A stretch of 64,000 nt of DNA from positions 55,121-119,120 of the IMG/VR virus record IMGVR_UViG_3300017911_002159; one strand, written 5' to 3'. Position numbers and translations under genes: made by a program. This document shows, piece by piece, positions 3,137-45,333 of the stretch; position 1 is the stretch's first letter; each line of letters opens with the position of its first letter. The DNA is from a virus (taxonomy: Duplodnaviria > Caudoviricetes). The notes under the pieces were generated by a model that was not told the DNA's origin, made no database searches, and saw only the letters and a list, made by a program, of their open reading frames with translations.

Positions 3137-4557
3137 TTAATATTGAAAAGATAAACGATGTATATATTAGAATAGATTGTGAAGAAGACGTTGCTTACGA
3201 GCTAAGTGACAAGTTTACCTTTGATGTTCCCGGTGCAAAATTTTCTCCAGCTTACAAGAAAAAGCTTTGGGACGGTAAAATACGTTTATTCAACATAAGA
3301 AAAAGAACTATTTACGCTGGATTAGTAGAAACAGTAAAAAGTTTTTTTGACGAGAAAGAATATGAATATAACGTAGGTTTTGATTACGATTCTTCAAAAA
3401 TTGATTTTGAATCTCTTATCAAAGAAATAAATCTACCAGATAATATTCAACCCAGAGACTACCAAAGAAAAGCTGTAGAACATGCAGTGTCAAAGTCCAG
3501 AGGACTTTTGCTGTCTCCGACAGCATCTGGTAAGTCACTTATCATCTATATTCTTACTAGATTTTATGAGAGTAAAACTCTTATAATTGTTCCTACTACT
3601 TCTCTCGTTTATCAGATGAGAGATGATTTTGTTTCTTATGGATATGACATAGATAAGATTCACTGTATCATGGCAGGACAAGATAAGGTTACTGATAAGC
3701 CTATCGTTATATCAACTTGGCAATCTATCCATAAGTCTAATAAAGATTTCTATGATCCTTACAAAGTCATTATAGGCGATGAAGCTCACTTGTTCAAGGC
3801 AAAATCTTTAACAACGATCATGGAAAAAACTGTTTCGGTCCCTTACAAGTTTGGGTTTACCGGAACACTGGATGGATCTCAGACCAACAAGCTTGTTTTA
3901 GAAGGACTTTTTGGGTCTGTCTTTAGGGTGACAACGACAAAGGAGTTGATGGATTCAAACTACCTAGCCAATGTTGGTGTCAAGTGTATAACACTCAACC
4001 ACCCCAAAGAAGCTAGAAACCTTGTCAAAGGTTCTACGTATCAACAAGAGATCGATTATCTTTGCATCAACCCACAAAGAAATAATTTTATAAAAAATCT
4101 TGCATTATCTTGTAATGGTAATACACTGGTTCTGTTTCAGATGGTCGAGAAGCAAGGGAAGCTGCTTTACGATCTTATTAAAGAAAATGGTAGGGATGTT
4201 TTTTATGTTGATGGCAACACAAAGGCTGAAGACCGTGAGAGTGTTAGGAAGTATGCAGAGGAGAATCAAAATGTGATTATTATCGCCTCCTATGGCGTTT
4301 TTAGTACGGGAGTAAACATCAAAAATTTGCATAACGTGATTTTTGCCTCTCCCTCAAAATCAAGAATCAGAAACCTACAATCTATCGGTAGGGGTCTGAG
4401 ACGGTCTTCGGAAAAGGATAAGGCGGTTGTCTACGATATTTCAGATGATTTAAGACAGAGAAACAAAGACAACTACACACTTCAACATTTCAAAGAGAGA
4501 TTGAGAATTTATTCTGAAGAAAAATTTAAATTTAAAGTGTATGAGTATAAATTATGA
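3133..4557 (+). CDS. uvsW: SF2 helicase UvsW
   Basis: WDGKIRLF, PRDYQ, SPTASGKS, DEAH, LQSIGRGLR. Confidence 0.95.
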   Translation: MINIEKINDVYIRIDCEEDVAYELSDKFTFDVPGAKFSPAYKKKLWDGKIRLFNIRKRTIYAGLVETVKSFFDEKEYEYNVGFDYDSSKIDFESLIKEINLPDNIQPRDYQRKAVEHAVSKSRGLLLSPTASGKSLIIYILTRFYESKTLIIVPTTSLVYQMRDDFVSYGYDIDKIHCIMAGQDKVTDKPIVISTWQSIHKSNKDFYDPYKVIIGDEAHLFKAKSLTTIMEKTVSVPYKFGFTGTLDGSQTNKLVLEGLFGSVFRVTTTKELMDSNYLANVGVKCITLNHPKEARNLVKGSTYQQEIDYLCINPQRNNFIKNLALSCNGNTLVLFQMVEKQGKLLYDLIKENGRDVFYVDGNTKAEDRESVRKYAEENQNVIIIASYGVFSTGVNIKNLHNVIFASPSKSRIRNLQSIGRGLRRSSEKDKAVVYDISDDLRQRNKDNYTLQHFKERLRIYSEEKFKFKVYEYKL

Positions 4558-5045
4558 CAAAAAAGAAAAAGTCGGTAAATTATATCGACAACAAAACATT
4601 TTACAGAAGATTGGTCGAATATCAGGAAGAGTGTAGAAACGCAGAGGACATGCCTATAATTCCTAATGACATTGCTATTTGTATTAGTGACATTGCAAAT
4701 CGTCTTGCCACCAAACCAAATTTTTCTGGATACATTTTTAAAGAGGATATGATTGGTGACGGCATTGAAAATGCATTGGATGCTGTGTTAAAGTTCAATC
4801 CTGAAAAATCTGAAAATCCATTTGCTTATTTCACACAAATAATCTGGTATGCTTTTCTCAGAAAAATCGAGAAGGAAAAAAAGCTTCTTCTAATCAAGAA
4901 AAAATACTATGATCATAAGTACATCAATCAGGAGCTTGTGGACTACTCACTCTCGGACAAGACCAAGATTCCTTACTCAGACACTTATGTTCAAAACGAC
5001 TACATGGATGATCTAGAAAAAAGGCACGACGAAAAGAATGGCTAA
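4554..5045 (+). CDS. 55: late transcription sigma factor gp55
   Basis: YIDNK.F, PNFSGY.FKEDMIGDGIEN, NPFAYFTQIIWYAFLRKI.KEK. Confidence 0.95.
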   Translation: MTKKKKSVNYIDNKTFYRRLVEYQEECRNAEDMPIIPNDIAICISDIANRLATKPNFSGYIFKEDMIGDGIENALDAVLKFNPEKSENPFAYFTQIIWYAFLRKIEKEKKLLLIKKKYYDHKYINQELVDYSLSDKTKIPYSDTYVQNDYMDDLEKRHDEKNG

Positions 5046-6087: not shown

Positions 6088-7802
6088 TGCATATTGAATT
6101 TAAAAATGTTAGATGGAAAAATTTTCTCAGTACAGGCAACGTTTACACAAATGTTGATCTGAACAAACACAAAACACGTCTGATTATTGGCAGCAATGGC
6201 TCTGGCAAATCTACAATTTTAGATGCCTTAACCTTTTGCTTATACAACAAACCTTTTAGAAAAATTAACAAGCCTCAGTTGATAAACTCTATCAACAAAA
6301 AAGATTGTTCTGTGGAAGTTGAGTTTGATACGGGCGGTCATAAATACAAAGTATCAAGAGGAATAAAGCCCAACTTCTTTAACATCGAGAGGGATGGGAA
6401 ACTTCTTGATCAAGACGCTGCCACAAAAGATTTTCAAAACATTCTAGAAAGAAACATTCTAAAGCTTAACTACAAGTCGTTTTGCCAAGTTGTTGTGGTT
6501 GGATCTGCTTCCTTTGTTCCTTTTATGCAGCTTACTGCAGCCTCTCGTAGAGAGGTTATCGAGGACATTCTAGATATTAAGATATTCTCTAGAATGAGTT
6601 CACTCGTAAAGGATGATGTTACATCTTTGAAAAATGCTATCACTGATAATGTCTCAAAAAGAAATTTTCAGGAAGAAAAGATTAACATGTTCAAAGAGTC
6701 TCAGAAAAAATTAGAACGAAACACTGAAGAACTTATAGAGAAACACAACAAAAAGATTGATGAAGTCGGCACAAAAATTAAAGAAATTCAAGAGCAAGTA
6801 GATATTTTAGTCGATGAAGTTTCTGGTTCTGCAGATATTGAGAAAGAGAATGCTGATCTTCAAAAAAATCATAGAGAAATCGAGAAACTTGAAACTTCTT
6901 TAAACGTAAAGATAAACAACTTAGAAAAGATTATAAACTTCTACGATAACAATGAAGACTGTCCTACCTGTCGGCAAACAATTGAGGACAGCTTTAAACT
7001 TAAAGAACAGAGCAATAGTAGAAAAAAGTCTGAAGAGTGTAAAGAAGCACTTAAATCTTTGTCACAGAAGAATGAAAAGGTTCAGGAAAGAATATCTTCT
7101 ATTGCTAGTCGTTTAAAAGAAATCTCACGTAAAAATTCTGAGATATCTGAAAAGAATAATCAAATTTCTTTTTACAACAACAATATCAAAGAAATTGTTA
7201 GTGAGGTTCAAAGACTTCAAGAAGATAAAAATGTCATCAGAAATGATGCAAAGCTTGCTGAGCTAGAGAAAGAATATAAAGATCTAAGATCACAATATTC
7301 TTCTTTGAAAGATGAGGCAAAGGTTCTTGAGGTAGCTGTTTCTTTATTGAAGGACTCGGGTATCAAGTCTTCAATAATAAAACAATATATTCCTGTGGTG
7401 AACAATCTTATTAATCAGTATTTGCAGTCTATGGACTTTTTTGTAAAATTTGAACTGGATGAAAATTTTGCAGAAACAATACTGTCTCGTCACAGAGATA
7501 TTTTTAGCTATGAATCTTTTTCCGAAGGTGAGAAGTTCAGAATTGATCTGGCTCTTCTGTTCACTTGGAGAAAGATAGCTAAGCTGAAAAATAGTGTATC
7601 GACCAATATCCTAATTATGGATGAAGTTTTTGATTCGTCTCTTGACTCTAGTGGGACGGACGATTTTATGAAACTGATTAACGATACCGACGAAATGTCA
7701 AACATTCTGATCATCTCACATAAGGGTGATCAGTTACATGATGCTTTTGATAATGTTATGAAATTTGAAAAGATGAAAGGATTTAGTAGGGTGGCTGCAT
7801 GA
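6087..7802 (+). CDS. 46: recombination ATPase gp46 (Rad50-like)
   Basis: GSNGSGKS, coiled coil with CPTC hook, FSEGEK signature, DEVFD. Confidence 0.95.
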   Translation: MHIEFKNVRWKNFLSTGNVYTNVDLNKHKTRLIIGSNGSGKSTILDALTFCLYNKPFRKINKPQLINSINKKDCSVEVEFDTGGHKYKVSRGIKPNFFNIERDGKLLDQDAATKDFQNILERNILKLNYKSFCQVVVVGSASFVPFMQLTAASRREVIEDILDIKIFSRMSSLVKDDVTSLKNAITDNVSKRNFQEEKINMFKESQKKLERNTEELIEKHNKKIDEVGTKIKEIQEQVDILVDEVSGSADIEKENADLQKNHREIEKLETSLNVKINNLEKIINFYDNNEDCPTCRQTIEDSFKLKEQSNSRKKSEECKEALKSLSQKNEKVQERISSIASRLKEISRKNSEISEKNNQISFYNNNIKEIVSEVQRLQEDKNVIRNDAKLAELEKEYKDLRSQYSSLKDEAKVLEVAVSLLKDSGIKSSIIKQYIPVVNNLINQYLQSMDFFVKFELDENFAETILSRHRDIFSYESFSEGEKFRIDLALLFTWRKIAKLKNSVSTNILIMDEVFDSSLDSSGTDDFMKLINDTDEMSNILIISHKGDQLHDAFDNVMKFEKMKGFSRVAA

Positions 7803-8293
7803 AATTAGAAATTGTCGATAGAAAACATCCTTTGTTGACTACAAAGCTTGATCCGTTTGATTTTAACAACCCGATTCATGATCCTAAAGAATTAGCTATT
7901 GAGATGGTTAATGTTATCAGAAAATATAAACTGGTGGCATTATCTGCTAATGAAGTTGGCATAAACACAAGATTGATAGTTTTGGATACAGATCCAATCT
8001 ACGCCATGTTCAATCCGATGATTACAAACACTTTTGGCGAAGAGGTCTATCTGGAAGAAACAGATATCTCTAGGTCTGATATTGTTTGTAAAGTCAAAAG
8101 ACCTTCTTCGGTTAGGGTAAGATTTCAAGATATTGAATCTGCATTTAATGCACAAAAGTTTGCTGGGCTTACAGCAAGAAATCTTTTACATCATTTAGAC
8201 AATATCGACGGAGTAGTTTTTTACAACAAGGCCACAGCCTTCCATCGACAAAAAGCTCTTAAGAACATGAAAAAACTATCAGGTGTAAAATGA
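7799..8293 (+). CDS. def: peptide deformylase-like protein, catalytic motifs degenerate
   Basis: PDF layout (LSANEVG, MFNP.I, KVKRP..V.V.F, AR..LH.LD...G) but EGCLS->ETDIS and HExDH->HHLDN. Confidence 0.75.
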   Translation: MKLEIVDRKHPLLTTKLDPFDFNNPIHDPKELAIEMVNVIRKYKLVALSANEVGINTRLIVLDTDPIYAMFNPMITNTFGEEVYLEETDISRSDIVCKVKRPSSVRVRFQDIESAFNAQKFAGLTARNLLHHLDNIDGVVFYNKATAFHRQKALKNMKKLSGVK

Positions 8294-12814: not shown

Positions 12815-12858
12815 GTTTCCACCCATCGTGGTATACTTCATTGAAACTAGGAGATTTT

Positions 12859-15384
12859 ATGAAGTTTTACACTCGTTGTGACATGAAGAATGGCTTCTTC
12901 CACGTAAGAGGTTACAAAGACGGAAAACAATTCACAGAAAATCATAGAGCACACCCGTATCTGTTTGAGATAGACAGAAAAGACTCCGACACACCGTACA
13001 GAACTTTAGACGGCAGAAAAGTCTTCAAAAGAAGTTTTAACTCATACAATGAAATTTTCGCCACTAGAGAAGAGATCATCAACACAGCCAACCGTGAATG
13101 CTTCGGCATGGAACTTTCCATGTATCCGTTTCTTTACGACAACTACCGTGGCGAAATTGAGTATGATCCGGACGTTATACGAGTAGCAAACATCGATATC
13201 GAAGTTGCTGCCGATGACGGATTTCCAGATGTAAATGAAGCTCTAAAGCCTATTACAGCCATCACAATGCACTGTCAGGGTACGTACCATGTTTATGGTA
13301 TTGGTGATTACAAGCCCCACAGAGATGATGTCGTCTACCAAAATTTTGAATCTGAATATGATTTGATTGATAAATTTATTGACGACTGGAGAGAAATTAA
13401 TCCAGACGTGATAACAGGCTGGAACGTAGAAGGCTTTGACGTACCTTACATTATTAACCGGTTTGAAAGAATTGTAGGCTCCGTAAAAACCCAGCTTCTT
13501 TCTCCTTGGGGAATAATATCAACAAAACATGTAACAGTGAAGGGGAAGTTTGGCCAAGAATATGAGCAAAATGTTAAGTTTATTCTTGGAGTATCTGTTT
13601 TAGATTATCTGGCACTTTACAAAAAATTTACTTATAAAGCTCAAGAAAATTACCGACTGGATACCATTGCTTTTGTAGAGCTTGGTGATCGAAAGCTTGA
13701 TTACTCAGATCATGGATCTTTGTTAGAACTTTACCGAAACGACTATCAAAAATTCATAGAATACAACATCAAAGATGTTGAGATTGTGCAAAGGCTTGAA
13801 GAGAAACTTGGTATGCTTGAGCTAATATATGCTCTTGCCTTTGATGCCAAAGTGAACTTCCAAGATGCTTTGACTTCGGTAAAAATGTGGGACGTTATCA
13901 TCCACAATTATCTTATGGATAAGAAAATTGTAGTTCCAGCAAAACCTTTAGCTGTCTCTAAATCAGAAAAGATCAAAGGGGGATATGTCAAGGAACCTAT
14001 TCCGGGCATGTACAATTGGGTCTGTTCCTTCGATCTGAACTCACTGTATCCACACCTGATTATGCAGTACAATATTTCACCAGACACTTATAAGGGACAT
14101 TTGGGTGTAAATGTAACTGTTGACTCTATTCTTGGTGGTCAGCTCAACAAAGACGACATACAAGAAAGTTTAGATAAGAGCAATTGTTCTTTGACTGCTT
14201 CTGGATTTATGTTCACCAAAAATAAGAGAGGGTTTCTTCCTGAACTTATGGACAAAATGTACAAAGATAGAAAAATGTACAAGTCCAAGATGATTGAGGT
14301 GAAGAAAGAATTCGAGAAGACTGGAGACCTGAAGCTCAAAAAAGAGATATCCCGCCTCGATAATATGCAAATGGCCAAAAAGATTCAGCTTAATTCAGCA
14401 TATGGAGCTTTGGCCAATGAGTGGTTTCGGTGGTTTAACAACAACTATGCAGAATCGATTACTCTCTCTGGACAACTGTCAATTCGGTGGATTGAAAATA
14501 AGTTAAATACATACTTGAACAACATACTTGGAACTGAGGGAGAAGACTTCATTGTTGCGGCTGATACTGACTCTGTTTATGTTGTTCTTGATAAATTGGT
14601 TGAATTTTCTTTCTCGAATTTATCTGAGACACCAAAGGAAAAAATCGTTACCTTCTTGGATAAAGTCTGCTCTCAAAAGATCGAGCCTTTTATCGAAAAC
14701 TCTTATGAAGAGTTGGCTGAATACGTTAGAGCATATGATCAAAAAATGTTCATGAAGCGGGAATGCATTGCCGACAAAGGAATATGGACCGCTAAGAAAA
14801 GATATATCCTTAACGTTTATGATAACGAAGGTGTGAGATACAAAGAGCCAGAACTCAAGATAATGGGCATCGAAGCTATCAAGTCTTCTACGCCGACAAT
14901 CTGCCGAGACTACATCAAAGAAACTTTGAAGCTAATCATGACTTCTGATGAAGAAACTGTGATCCGACACATCACACATCTTAAAAGAAAGTTCAAAGAA
15001 AATAGTTTTGATGATGTTGCATTCCCAAGAAGTGCCAATAATATCAAAAAATATAATGACTCTGCATCCGTCTACAAAAAAGGGACGCCTATCCAAGTCA
15101 GGGGTTCTCTTCTTTATAATAAAATAATTAAAGACATGGGTCTCGATAAGAAATATCAGTATATCAAAGACGGAGACAAGATTAAGTTTTGTTATCTGAA
15201 AATGCCTAACCCCCTGAAAGATAACGTAATTTCTTGTGCATCGGGCATGCCAAGAGAAGTTGATTTAGACCAGTATATCGACTATAACAAACAATTCGAG
15301 AAGGGTTATCTTGAACCAGTTAAAACAATTCTCAACTCTATCGGTTGGGAGCATGAAAAGAGAAACACACTTCCGTTTTTATAG
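12859..15384 (+). CDS. 43: family B DNA polymerase gp43
   Basis: DIEV exo I, GWNVEGFD, FDLNSLYP, KIQLNSAYG, DTDS, KKRY; start at ATG 12859 behind AGGAG. Confidence 0.97.
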   Translation: MKFYTRCDMKNGFFHVRGYKDGKQFTENHRAHPYLFEIDRKDSDTPYRTLDGRKVFKRSFNSYNEIFATREEIINTANRECFGMELSMYPFLYDNYRGEIEYDPDVIRVANIDIEVAADDGFPDVNEALKPITAITMHCQGTYHVYGIGDYKPHRDDVVYQNFESEYDLIDKFIDDWREINPDVITGWNVEGFDVPYIINRFERIVGSVKTQLLSPWGIISTKHVTVKGKFGQEYEQNVKFILGVSVLDYLALYKKFTYKAQENYRLDTIAFVELGDRKLDYSDHGSLLELYRNDYQKFIEYNIKDVEIVQRLEEKLGMLELIYALAFDAKVNFQDALTSVKMWDVIIHNYLMDKKIVVPAKPLAVSKSEKIKGGYVKEPIPGMYNWVCSFDLNSLYPHLIMQYNISPDTYKGHLGVNVTVDSILGGQLNKDDIQESLDKSNCSLTASGFMFTKNKRGFLPELMDKMYKDRKMYKSKMIEVKKEFEKTGDLKLKKEISRLDNMQMAKKIQLNSAYGALANEWFRWFNNNYAESITLSGQLSIRWIENKLNTYLNNILGTEGEDFIVAADTDSVYVVLDKLVEFSFSNLSETPKEKIVTFLDKVCSQKIEPFIENSYEELAEYVRAYDQKMFMKRECIADKGIWTAKKRYILNVYDNEGVRYKEPELKIMGIEAIKSSTPTICRDYIKETLKLIMTSDEETVIRHITHLKRKFKENSFDDVAFPRSANNIKKYNDSASVYKKGTPIQVRGSLLYNKIIKDMGLDKKYQYIKDGDKIKFCYLKMPNPLKDNVISCASGMPREVDLDQYIDYNKQFEKGYLEPVKTILNSIGWEHEKRNTLPFL

Positions 15385-24283: not shown

Positions 24284-24694
24284 ATGTTTGGCTTGATACA
24301 GAGGATAGGATTCCTCGCTTTTTTATTAGTCCCTTCTTTTGCTCAGGCCGAAGAGATTCAGCCTGAGTTTTTTATTCATGACTTAACAAATGCTACAGCA
24401 TTGTTTAAAGCAGCAGACATGGGATGTGGAACCGTAGATGAAGATGTTTACAAATTTTTAATCAGAGGTTCTGCTGACTATCTGATGGAGACTGGTGCCT
24501 CAAGAATTCTTGCTGCACAGATGTTAAATGCTTTGGCAATTGAAATTGTTCAAAGTACAGAAAGATACATTAATTATCACGGTTGTGATAAATTTAACTC
24601 AGTTATGTTTGAGTTCAAAGACGATTACAAGATACTTAATGACGTTTTTGAAATATATAACATTTCGTTTGACAGTGAAGAAATACAGTTGTAA
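24284..24694 (+). CDS. exported hypothetical protein
   Basis: Signal peptide ending AQA. Confidence 0.6.
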   Translation: MFGLIQRIGFLAFLLVPSFAQAEEIQPEFFIHDLTNATALFKAADMGCGTVDEDVYKFLIRGSADYLMETGASRILAAQMLNALAIEIVQSTERYINYHGCDKFNSVMFEFKDDYKILNDVFEIYNISFDSEEIQL

Positions 24695-24704
24695 ATAAAT
24701 AGTT

Positions 24705-24954
24705 GTGTTCTTGTTGAGGATTCGACAAAAGCTATGCAGGACAGGAGTGCAAATCTCCTCACCTCCACCACAAGCATATTAAGGTATGTTTCTGATGGGG
24801 GTGACTTAGGATCGACTGGTAGTAAGTAGCTTATCTGAGAGAGCAAAAAAAATAGTTGCTAATAACTATGACAAACCTTCCGTAGCTCTTGCAGCATAAC
24901 GGGTTGGGCTTGATTCGGGGAGCCTAGAAACAGAAGGGGGATAACTTATCCCCC
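24705..24954 (+). ncRNA. ssrA: circularly permuted (two-piece) tmRNA, tag ANNYDKPSVALAA
   Basis: T-arm and CACCTCC-A-CCA (24760-24770) precede GGGGGTG (24797-24803) with G3:U70; tag ORF 24858-24899; ends approximate. Confidence 0.9.
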
Positions 24955-24970
24955 ACTCGATCTTCTCTTC

Positions 24971-25006: not shown

Positions 25007-25654
25007 ATGAAAAAACTTCTTTTAGGGATGACTGCTTTGGTTGCAGTTTCCTCTACTGCTATGGCTCAAGAGGCGGCTGCTCCTGCACCTTCTCTGACCA
25101 ATGCTTATGTCGGTGTTTCGACAAGCCTTGAAGGTACTGCTGACTGGACTCTGGGTTCGGAAATCAACCTTTCTGGTCTGAATGGTTACGGTGAACTCAA
25201 GTACAAGGACCGTGTTGATGCTGCTGGTGACCCTGCAGACGACTATGTTGTTACTCTGGGTTCCAAGCTTTCTGTAGCTGGTCTGGGTCTGAAGACTGGT
25301 GTTAGCTACGAATGGGGTTCCACTTCCGGTGCTGATCTTATCGGTCGTGGTGACGGTAACACTTGGGGTGACCTGACTTCTAACACAGAATTCTCTGTTT
25401 CTCCCGGTGTCATCGGTGGCGAGTTTGTCTGGCTTGGTGCTACGATGAATCTTGCTTCTGATGGTGAGATCGATCTTGGCTGGGGCGGTGCAAACTACGG
25501 CTTTGGCTACAAGCATGACCTCAACGAAAGAGCTTCAATTTCTGCAAGCTACGGTTGGAATGTATCTGTTGTTGACGATGGTGACGATGCTACTGTAAAT
25601 GATTGGGTAACTGAATCTACTGGTCTGAAACTTGGTGTAGGGTTCAAGTTCTAA
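25007..25654 (+). CDS. outer-membrane beta-barrel protein (porin-like)
   Basis: Sec signal MKKLLLG..AMA, alternating amphipathic strands, C-terminal GVGFKF. Confidence 0.8.
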   Translation: MKKLLLGMTALVAVSSTAMAQEAAAPAPSLTNAYVGVSTSLEGTADWTLGSEINLSGLNGYGELKYKDRVDAAGDPADDYVVTLGSKLSVAGLGLKTGVSYEWGSTSGADLIGRGDGNTWGDLTSNTEFSVSPGVIGGEFVWLGATMNLASDGEIDLGWGGANYGFGYKHDLNERASISASYGWNVSVVDDGDDATVNDWVTESTGLKLGVGFKF

Positions 25655-44297: not shown

Positions 44298-44742
44298 AAA
44301 GATTGCTGTTGTCTCTGGTGGCTTTGATCCACTGCATCCGGGGCATGTTTTCATGTTCCAAGAGGCAAAAAGGCATGGTGAACTTCTGATAGCTGGTGTA
44401 AACTCTGATGACTGGCTGAAAAGAAAGAAGGGTAAACCCTTCATGGAGTTTGGTGATAGACTTCAAATGGTTCAAACAAATCAGTTTGTTGATTTAGCTG
44501 TAGGTTTTGAGGATGATGATGACACGGCGATTGATCTCATTTATAAAGTCTCGAAAATATTCAGTTCTTCTTATATTGTTTTTTGCAATGGCGGAGACCG
44601 TGCTTTGGATAACACTCCCGAGTTTAACCATTTTGACGGTGATTCGAGGTTTCTTTTCGAATTCGGAGTAGGTGGCTCTTACAAGTATGCATCTTCTTCT
44701 GAACTTTTAGAAAATTGGAAATTAGCTCCCTTGGCGGAATAG
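44278..44742 (+). CDS. cytidylyltransferase-like (TagD/RfaE family)
   Basis: SGGFDPLHPGH, NSD.WL.RKKG, NGGDR, SSS. Confidence 0.88.
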   Translation: MKEFHHKKIAVVSGGFDPLHPGHVFMFQEAKRHGELLIAGVNSDDWLKRKKGKPFMEFGDRLQMVQTNQFVDLAVGFEDDDDTAIDLIYKVSKIFSSSYIVFCNGGDRALDNTPEFNHFDGDSRFLFEFGVGGSYKYASSSELLENWKLAPLAE

Positions 44743-44810
44743 GTAGACGCTGCAGACTTAAAATCTGTTTTCCTTTGGAAGTGCCGGTTCGAGTCCGGCA
44801 GGGAGTACCA
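44725..44810 (+). tRNA. tRNA-Leu(UAA)
   Basis: Cloverleaf GCTCCCT/AGGGAGT, anticodon loop CT-TAA-AA, long variable arm, TTCGAGT, encoded CCA. Confidence 0.95.
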
Positions 44811-45256: not shown

Positions 45257-45333
45257 GGGCTTGTAGTTCAATTGGTCAGAACCCTCGGCTCATAACCGAG
45301 TTGTTACAGGTTCGAGTCCTGTCAGGCCCACCA
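45257..45333 (+). tRNA. tRNA with CAU anticodon, likely Ile2 (lysidine), possibly Met
   Basis: GGGCTTG/CAGGCCC stem, CT-CAT-AA, A73, CCA; G1:C72 argues against fMet. Confidence 0.9.

Follow-up and report, generated by a model that had tools for sequence, protein, structure and literature searches.

A two-piece tmRNA was reportedly described in Caulobacter by Keiler, Shapiro, and Williams in 2000. In phages, tmRNAs have been known since those of the Bxz1-type mycobacteriophages (PMC4131195), and the current tmRNA database holds 79 distinct phage sequences (PMC11915505). The RNAs of the Bxz1 group, Bacillus phage G, and DS6A are phage encoded and depend on host SmpB (PMC4131195), as would the RNA described here. 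In contrast to it, the Bxz1-group and phage G RNAs are one-piece and nonpermuted, the DS6A RNA lacks a tag open reading frame (ORF), and these phages belong to unrelated groups with unrelated hosts. The closest described systems are the two-piece ssrA genes of the OM43 phage Melnitz and the Pelagibacter phage Mosig EXVC030M (Buchholz et al. 2022, PMC9004378). Permuted tmRNAs were also reported in 17 of 47 related pelagimyophage contigs, and 53 two-piece sequences were counted in phage genome databases, 50 of them marine or aquatic (PMC9004378). The novelty implied by the initial annotation of our locus therefore does not hold, since two-piece tmRNAs of marine T4-like phages were already published (PMC9004378).

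We analyzed a stretch of 64,000 nucleotides (the window), which is the final 64 kb of a 119,120-bp IMG/VR record with a CheckV completeness estimate of ~66%. The record represents an uncultured marine T4-like myovirus with a GC content of 38 to 40%. Its gp43 DNA polymerase (12841-15384) has its closest cultured relatives in Synechococcus myophages, at only 49.5% amino acid identity. The phage also encodes a gp41 helicase, gp46/47, a clamp loader, UvsX, a tail tube protein, and a gp55-like late sigma factor (4554-5045; phrog_234, E = 2.8e-46). We sought SmpB, integrase, and psbA in this ~66%-complete record and found none of them.

Like Melnitz and Mosig, this is a lytic marine T4-like (Kyanoviridae-type) phage whose ssrA has the alpha-type permuted order, and in none of these phages has a phage SmpB been reported or found. 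The Mosig gene (MT647606, annotated SsrA) shares a UGC-type T-loop with ours, UGCAACU in Mosig, and scores 67.6 bits in the alpha model versus 62 bits for the window gene. Useful nucleotide similarity between the two is limited to the tRNA-like domain (E = 0.2). A nucleotide search of 50,697 phage records returned nothing at E = 1e-5 and, at E = 1, only short tRNA-like-domain matches that included Mosig SsrA. The window ssrA lies between genes for secreted and outer-membrane proteins, whereas that of Mosig lies upstream of a gp33-like coactivator gene. The Melnitz gene is likewise upstream of a gp33-like gene, and both of those phages carry a glutamine riboswitch (PMC9004378). An Rfam scan of the window, unlike Melnitz and Mosig, found no riboswitch. 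The window gene also differs from theirs in having no pseudoknot 1 (PK1) and in lying behind a late-promoter box. The tags belong to different families, ANNY..PSVALAA in the window and GEDNFALAA in Mosig as read by ARAGORN. The GEDNFALAA reading of the Mosig locus (L342:1450-1788) implies a Gly (GGC) rather than an Ala resume codon.

With the alphaproteobacterial two-piece tmRNA (RF01849), the window gene shares the order of acceptor piece, intervening segment, and coding piece, as well as G3:U70, an encoded CCA, a P2 that joins the pieces, and a tag of the AAN...A-x-AA type. It differs from the bacterial form in its UGC T-loop, phage-type promoter, and viral location and in having neither PK1 nor the middle P2.

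Gene identity and anatomy

The initial annotation had described the locus as a phage-encoded, circularly permuted two-piece tmRNA and had proposed covariance models and ARAGORN as checks. We found that the Rfam model RF04321 (tmRNA_permuted) matched positions 24718-24899 across the full model (1-213) with 92.1 bits against a cutoff of 47 (E = 1.8e-16). RF01849 (alpha_tmRNA) matched 24665-24946 with 62 bits against a cutoff of 50 (E = 1.2e-14). The match to tmRNA models is far beyond chance, and clade relatives of the gene scored 85 to 101 bits in RF04321. On the window gene, the cyanobacterial and betaproteobacterial subtype models stayed below their cutoffs (36.3 versus 70 bits and 50.2 versus 84 bits). 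The 3' part of the RNA is encoded upstream of the 5' part, and the positions first given for the CCA, the GGGGG start, the spacer, the tag, the hairpin, and the late box all agree with the sequence. We concluded that the window ssrA is a phage-borne, circularly permuted, alpha-type two-piece tmRNA gene.

At default settings, ARAGORN missed the gene, and at a lowered threshold (-ps80) it reported the same tag. The homologue in L199 was called at default settings, in the same frame as in the window. We also ran ARAGORN 1.2.41 at default settings on 13 loci, 11 with Rfam-confirmed permuted tmRNAs and 2 bacterial loci found through the junction pattern. Only 6 of the 13 were called; the window, L198, L178, L098, L121, L091, and one bacterial locus were missed. 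Because default ARAGORN misses such genes, ARAGORN-based surveys and published phage tmRNA counts are probably too low for them.

All features of the gene lie on the + strand, and its two pieces were delimited with the Rfam alignments. The acceptor piece (24707-24770), whose 5' end we placed from the promoter position, contains the 5' strands of P2b (24718-24721) and P2a (24732-24739, with G24736 bulged). It continues with the T arm (24743-24759; T-loop UGCAAAU), the acceptor 3' strand (24760-24766), the discriminator A24767, and the encoded CCA (24768-24770). A 26-nt intervening segment without an ORF follows (24771-24796); it folds into an 8-bp hairpin (24772-24791) and is presumably removed in maturation. 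The coding piece (24797-24957) starts with GGGGGTGACTTAGGATCGAC. Its acceptor 5' strand, GGGGGUG (24797-24803), forms a 7-bp stem with 24766-24760. The alanine identity pair G3:U70 (24799:24764), which the initial annotation had called intact, is indeed present and is kept in all 10 clade members. After the D-loop analogue ACUUAGGAUCGA (GGAUCGA; 24804-24815) come the 3' strands of the 7-bp P2a (24816-24822) and the 4-bp P2b (24833-24836) and then a 21-nt A-rich linker that ends in AUAGUU and has no PK1 (24837-24857). The AUAG box of this linker (24852-24855) lies 5' of the resume codon, which is a known tmRNA preference (PMC4236655). The tag ORF has 13 codons, starting at the resume codon GCU, and a UAA stop (24858-24899), as read from the translation, the Rfam alignment, and ARAGORN. 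It is followed by a 7-bp hairpin, 3' hairpin 1 (24905-24926), and an 8-bp terminal hairpin (24936-24954). In alignment with relatives, the conserved block of the locus stops near 24957-24960.

Several other candidate elements were considered. We rejected a pseudoknot between the hairpin-1 loop GGGG and the downstream CCCCC, because in L199 and L351 a G has become A, which lengthens the hairpin (U-G to U-A), and because the terminal hairpin covaries. A linker-to-tag helix, GAGAG/CUCUU, was also rejected, as the clade alignment, checked by eye, gave it no compensatory support. A possible hairpin around the resume codon, AUAGUU/AACUAU, is invariant in the 10-sequence alignment and hence gives no covariation signal. 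With no U run behind it, the terminal hairpin lacks the form of a canonical intrinsic terminator on the + strand. On the - strand, where it is followed by TTCTGTTTCT, the same hairpin (24936-24954) does score as an intrinsic terminator; there is no nearby minus-strand gene.

The tag frame, GCT..GCA TAA, reads ANNYDKPSVALAA* and, with the charging alanine, gives the 14-residue tag AANNYDKPSVALAA. The Caulobacter tag, AANDNFAEEFAVAA, also has 14 residues. The initial annotation had described a divergent tag that keeps the LAA signal. The LAA end is retained, but the tag is only mildly divergent, and closely similar tags are frequent both in viral contigs (ANDNYKPSGLALAA) and in bacteria (ANDNYAPVALAA and ANNNYAPVAQAA). 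By this comparison of sequences, it is a mild variant of the alpha-type family.

The gene sits between two ORFs on the same strand. Upstream is a 136-amino-acid protein with a signal peptide (24284-24694), syntenic in relatives, and downstream is a 215-amino-acid protein with a signal peptide and the C terminus ...GFKF (25007-25654). Pfam and PHROG searches with both proteins gave no match. ESM Atlas neighbors of the downstream protein are viral clusters carrying PF24653 (Phage_OMP) and PF13505, and this protein looks like a phage-encoded outer-membrane β-barrel. The record also has four tRNA genes, Arg-tct, Thr-tgt, Leu-taa, and Met-cat, located at G000:C1:1388-1464 and 3460-3535 and at window positions 44725-44810 and 45257-45333. 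A peptide deformylase homologue is encoded at 7799-8293 (+) of the window (phrog_2890, E = 5.9e-29). Together, the peptide deformylase, ssrA, and the four tRNAs form a small translation-support gene set in this phage.

Conservation and covariation in related phages

We collected relatives by pattern scans of IMG/VR and JGI metagenomes and recognized a clade by the tag ANNY-x-x-PSVALAA. It has ten distinct members, all from marine viral and metagenome contigs, in which ssrA occupies the same locus. L348 (a Tara assembly) and L350 belong to the same phage population as the window (94.5% and 96.4% nucleotide identity), whereas the remaining phages share only ~70 to 80% nucleotide identity over the alignable parts. 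We checked gene order in L198 and L199 and found ssrA between the same secreted-protein and β-barrel genes. The 136-amino-acid protein is 42% identical to its counterpart there, and the 215-amino-acid β-barrel-like protein, in the same position, is 34% identical. Compared with these two contigs, the RNA is 86% identical, the immediate flanks only ~50 to 56%, and the neighboring proteins 34 to 45%.

In the ten-member alignment, 96.8% of the cells in the proposed structure form standard pairs. Nineteen pairs changed on both sides, compared with 5.1 in column shuffles (none of 500 shuffles reached 19) and no more than 3 in controls with slid partners. Three pairs of the acceptor stem and three of the T stem covary, and both-side changes occur in five pairs of P2a and P2b. 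In the spacer, G-U to A-U and U-G to C-G changes preserve the hairpin, as do both-side changes in more distant relatives. The terminal hairpin covaries as well, from GGGGGAUA/UAUCCCCC to GAGGAGCA/UGCUCCUC in L344, and three acceptor-stem pairs are flipped in L344 with complete compensation. The tags, ANNY[DK/KR/EK/KK]PSVALAA, vary only at positions 5 and 6, and synonymous changes occur at Ala1 (GCT/GCA) and Leu11 (CTT/CTA). The conservation of the RNA over its flanks, the covariation, and the synonymous tag changes indicate that this RNA is under selection, folded, and translated, and on this comparative evidence a remnant, a chimera, and a chance match are ruled out.

L344 (6466-6760, +) is a mosaic. 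Its P2, tag, and 3' domain are window-like, its T arm has a bacterial-type GGC loop, and its late box is degenerate (GCTAAATA). This mosaic suggests that tRNA-like domains may be exchanged among phage tmRNA genes.

Late-promoter context and reduced architecture

A T4-type late-promoter box, AATAAATA, lies at 24694-24701 (+), overlapping the upstream ORF at its stop codon. The box is 45 nt upstream of a conserved GGAC located 5' of the T arm. The window box is not the canonical TATAAATA, which counts against our main interpretation. The canonical form does stand in the same alignment column in L198, L199, L346, and L351. More broadly, WATAAATA precedes 87 of 189 viral permuted tmRNA genes, nearly always 41 to 46 nt 5' of GGAC, versus 2 of 93 bacterial genes. 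With matched fetch patterns and deduplication, we found the late box in 32 of 69 viral and 0 of 88 bacterial sequences (Fisher P = 2e-14, a value that overstates independence because the compared sequences are mutually related). The late motif occurs 17 times in the window versus 9.2 expected, and most copies are 30 to 65 nt upstream of ORF starts. From the position of the box, the transcript would start near 24707, close to where the acceptor piece begins.

The fixed position of the late box and the presence of a gp55 homologue support late transcription. Late expression, as claimed in the initial annotation, is thus plausible for the window ssrA: most relatives have TATAAATA, and the spacing of the box is fixed in many phage ssrA genes. 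Its conserved placement speaks for late over early expression of many such genes. For Melnitz ssrA, an early promoter was proposed by the authors (PMC9004378), and we found no late box in the region upstream of Mosig ssrA. Because of these two cases, the timing of expression may differ among phage groups.

Viral and bacterial copies differ in the T-loop. The UGC type occurs in 85 of 190 viral copies versus 1 of 92 bacterial copies, and GGC is found in 90 of the 92. The window T-loop, UGCAAAU, thus departs from the bacterial-alpha type (GGCNNNN). Within the viral set, the UGC T-loop accompanies the late box (23 of 27). We searched bacterial genomes of 185,579 species for the GTGCAAATC T-loop together with this junction and found none. 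Among 112 alphaproteobacterial loci with the shared junction, the best match had 74% identity over 89 nt, and BLAST of the tmRNA against five representative genomes gave no match. In a 76-column tree, the window falls in an almost entirely viral set, whose sole bacterial member is L320, from a Rhodobacteraceae metagenome-assembled genome with 70% GC. The placement of L320 probably reflects T-loop convergence.

The window gene is also shorter than its bacterial counterparts. PK1 is typical of tmRNAs, though it is not required by the family RF04321, and the PK1 region is deleted in both model alignments (16 nt in RF04321 and ~15 nt in RF01849). The middle P2 helix of both models is deleted too, and P2a and P2b remain. 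The 21-nt linker between P2b and the resume codon is A-rich and poorly conserved. TCGAC and the resume codon are 41 nt apart in the window versus 61 to 67 nt in 78 bacterial copies; in some other viral copies the distance falls to as little as 26 to 29 nt. Longer forms exist in L343 (1691-1985, -) and L347 (3277-3571, -), which have ~40 extra structured nucleotides in the place of PK1, a 41-nt hairpin spacer, the tag ANNYEKPSVALAA, and the box TATAAATA. Because these two keep the extra structured nucleotides, PK1 and the middle P2 would have been lost inside the clade, and the long form is the likely ancestral state of the reduced form.

A reduced tmRNA of this kind has an experimental analogue. 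When PK1 of Escherichia coli tmRNA was exchanged for single-stranded RNA, tagging was still efficient (Wower, Zwieb, and Wower 2009, as summarized in PMC4236655). From the same summary, the engineered RNA shares with ours a single-stranded linker from P2 to the AUAG box. It is a one-piece laboratory construct, whereas the loss in the window gene is natural, in a two-piece RNA, and comes with a shortened P2. Since the PK1-replaced RNA still tags, the reduced form can plausibly work. The linker of P2, PK1, and upstream sequence does influence tagging efficiency in E. coli (PMC4236655). Should the phage RNAs be active, they would represent minimal tmRNAs of natural origin in which PK1 is dispensable in vivo.

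We tentatively raise the possibility that phages maintain a lineage of alpha-type two-piece tmRNA that is distinct from sampled bacterial ssrA. Such a lineage would be marked by the UGC T-loop and by a T4-type late promoter with its start at the acceptor 5' end, and it would include one clade that has dispensed with PK1 and the middle P2 and has a selected tag varying only at positions 5 and 6. If this is true, the variable residues could mark a contact in host-phage conflict. Relative to the searchable literature, the modest additions are the missing PK1 and middle P2, a T-loop of the UGC type typical of phage copies, and the failure of default ARAGORN to call the gene; the conserved late-promoter placement likewise adds modestly to the known phage two-piece tmRNAs.

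Proposed function and host

Starting from the gene identity, fold, conservation, and conserved late-promoter context, all of which our analysis shows, we propose how the RNA would be processed, charged, and used for tagging, and when. We think it very probable that the gene is a functional phage-borne alpha-type two-piece ssrA that serves as a late-phase supplement to host trans-translation. According to this model, the gp55-type late machinery would start the precursor a few bases past the AATAAATA box, near 24707. With that start, the 5' end of the acceptor piece would need little or no trimming. Host RNase P would cleave 5' of G24797, and the 26-nt hairpin spacer would be trimmed back as far as the encoded CCA (24770). 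This would leave two pieces of ~64 and ~160 nt, held together by the 7-bp acceptor stem, P2a, and P2b. Host AlaRS would charge the RNA via G3:U70, and host SmpB and EF-Tu would bring it to ribosomes that have stalled on mRNAs that are broken or lack a stop codon. Late in a T4-type infection, with host transcription shut off, such ribosomes should be numerous. Translation would restart at GCU 24858 after the AUAG box and append (A)ANNYDKPSVALAA, and the LAA end would mark the tagged protein for host proteases of the ClpXP type. Ribosomes and amino acids would thereby stay available for the synthesis of late proteins. Because SmpB was not found in the ~66%-complete record, function would depend on a compatible host SmpB. 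The gene thus adds one more well-documented case of a large lytic marine phage that carries its own ribosome-rescue RNA beside tRNAs and a peptide deformylase, and the general picture of trans-translation is unchanged by it.

The RNA could instead act mainly by competing with or reprogramming host trans-translation, either occupying host SmpB and ribosomes so that host tmRNA is displaced or inhibited, or imposing a phage tag with another adaptor or protease fate. Competition has a precedent in mycobacteriophage DS6A, whose tmRNA consists of the tRNA-like domain only and inhibits endogenous tmRNA (PMC4131195, PMC11915505). The absence of PK1 and part of P2 would suit a competitor, and the variation of tag positions 5 and 6 (DK, KR, EK, and KK) in an otherwise fixed tag could reflect tuning of an adaptor contact. 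A pure decoy, however, needs no tag ORF, AUAG box, resume codon, or stop codon, all of which are kept here with synonymous changes. The LAA degron is retained, and the efficient tagging by PK1-replaced E. coli tmRNA, as summarized in PMC4236655, also speaks against this reading, which we consider unlikely.

We regard as quite improbable that the gene is a spare that replaces a host copy destroyed by a defense RNase or by phage-induced RNA decay. Phage tRNA genes can stand in for tRNAs cleaved by anticodon nucleases, and this phage has four tRNAs and a peptide deformylase, so replacement can be argued by analogy only. Nevertheless, we know of no defense nuclease that targets tmRNA, and our literature searches for one turned up none. 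The RNA bears no sequence sign of such a role, for example, an altered cleavage-prone loop that matches a known nuclease, and the difference between its UGC T-loop and the bacterial GGC loops is not known to bear on nuclease resistance. The suggestion of the initial annotation that the gene replaces a nuclease-cut host tmRNA finds no support in our data, and in its simple-decay form this idea overlaps with late-phase supplementation. Least credible, to a degree that makes it very improbable indeed, is a nonfunctional passenger, whether a host ssrA captured recently, the remains of an integration site, or a chimera from assembly. Integration at tmRNA genes is common, and prophages contain fragments of such genes (PMC9004378, PMC4383910). 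This gene is full length and covarying, though, and it is conserved far over its flanks. It is also syntenic in at least five diverged lineages of phages that come from separate samples. An attachment-site remnant is excluded because no integrase was found in the ~66%-complete record. A recent capture is opposed by the bacterial searches described above, in which none of the 185,579 species had this T-loop with this junction and the best bacterial match reached 74% over 89 nt.

We favor late-phase supplementation of host trans-translation, and the locus gives some indication of which host this would be. The alpha-type RNA and the adjacent gene for a Gram-negative-type outer-membrane protein suggest that the host is diderm and probably an alphaproteobacterium. 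Melnitz shows that an alpha-type ssrA is possible in a phage of another host class (PMC9004378). The elongator tRNAs Arg-tct, Thr-tgt, and Leu-taa all read A/U-ending codons. These three tRNAs hint that the GC content of the host is higher than the 38 to 40% of the phage and that the host is therefore probably not SAR11-like.
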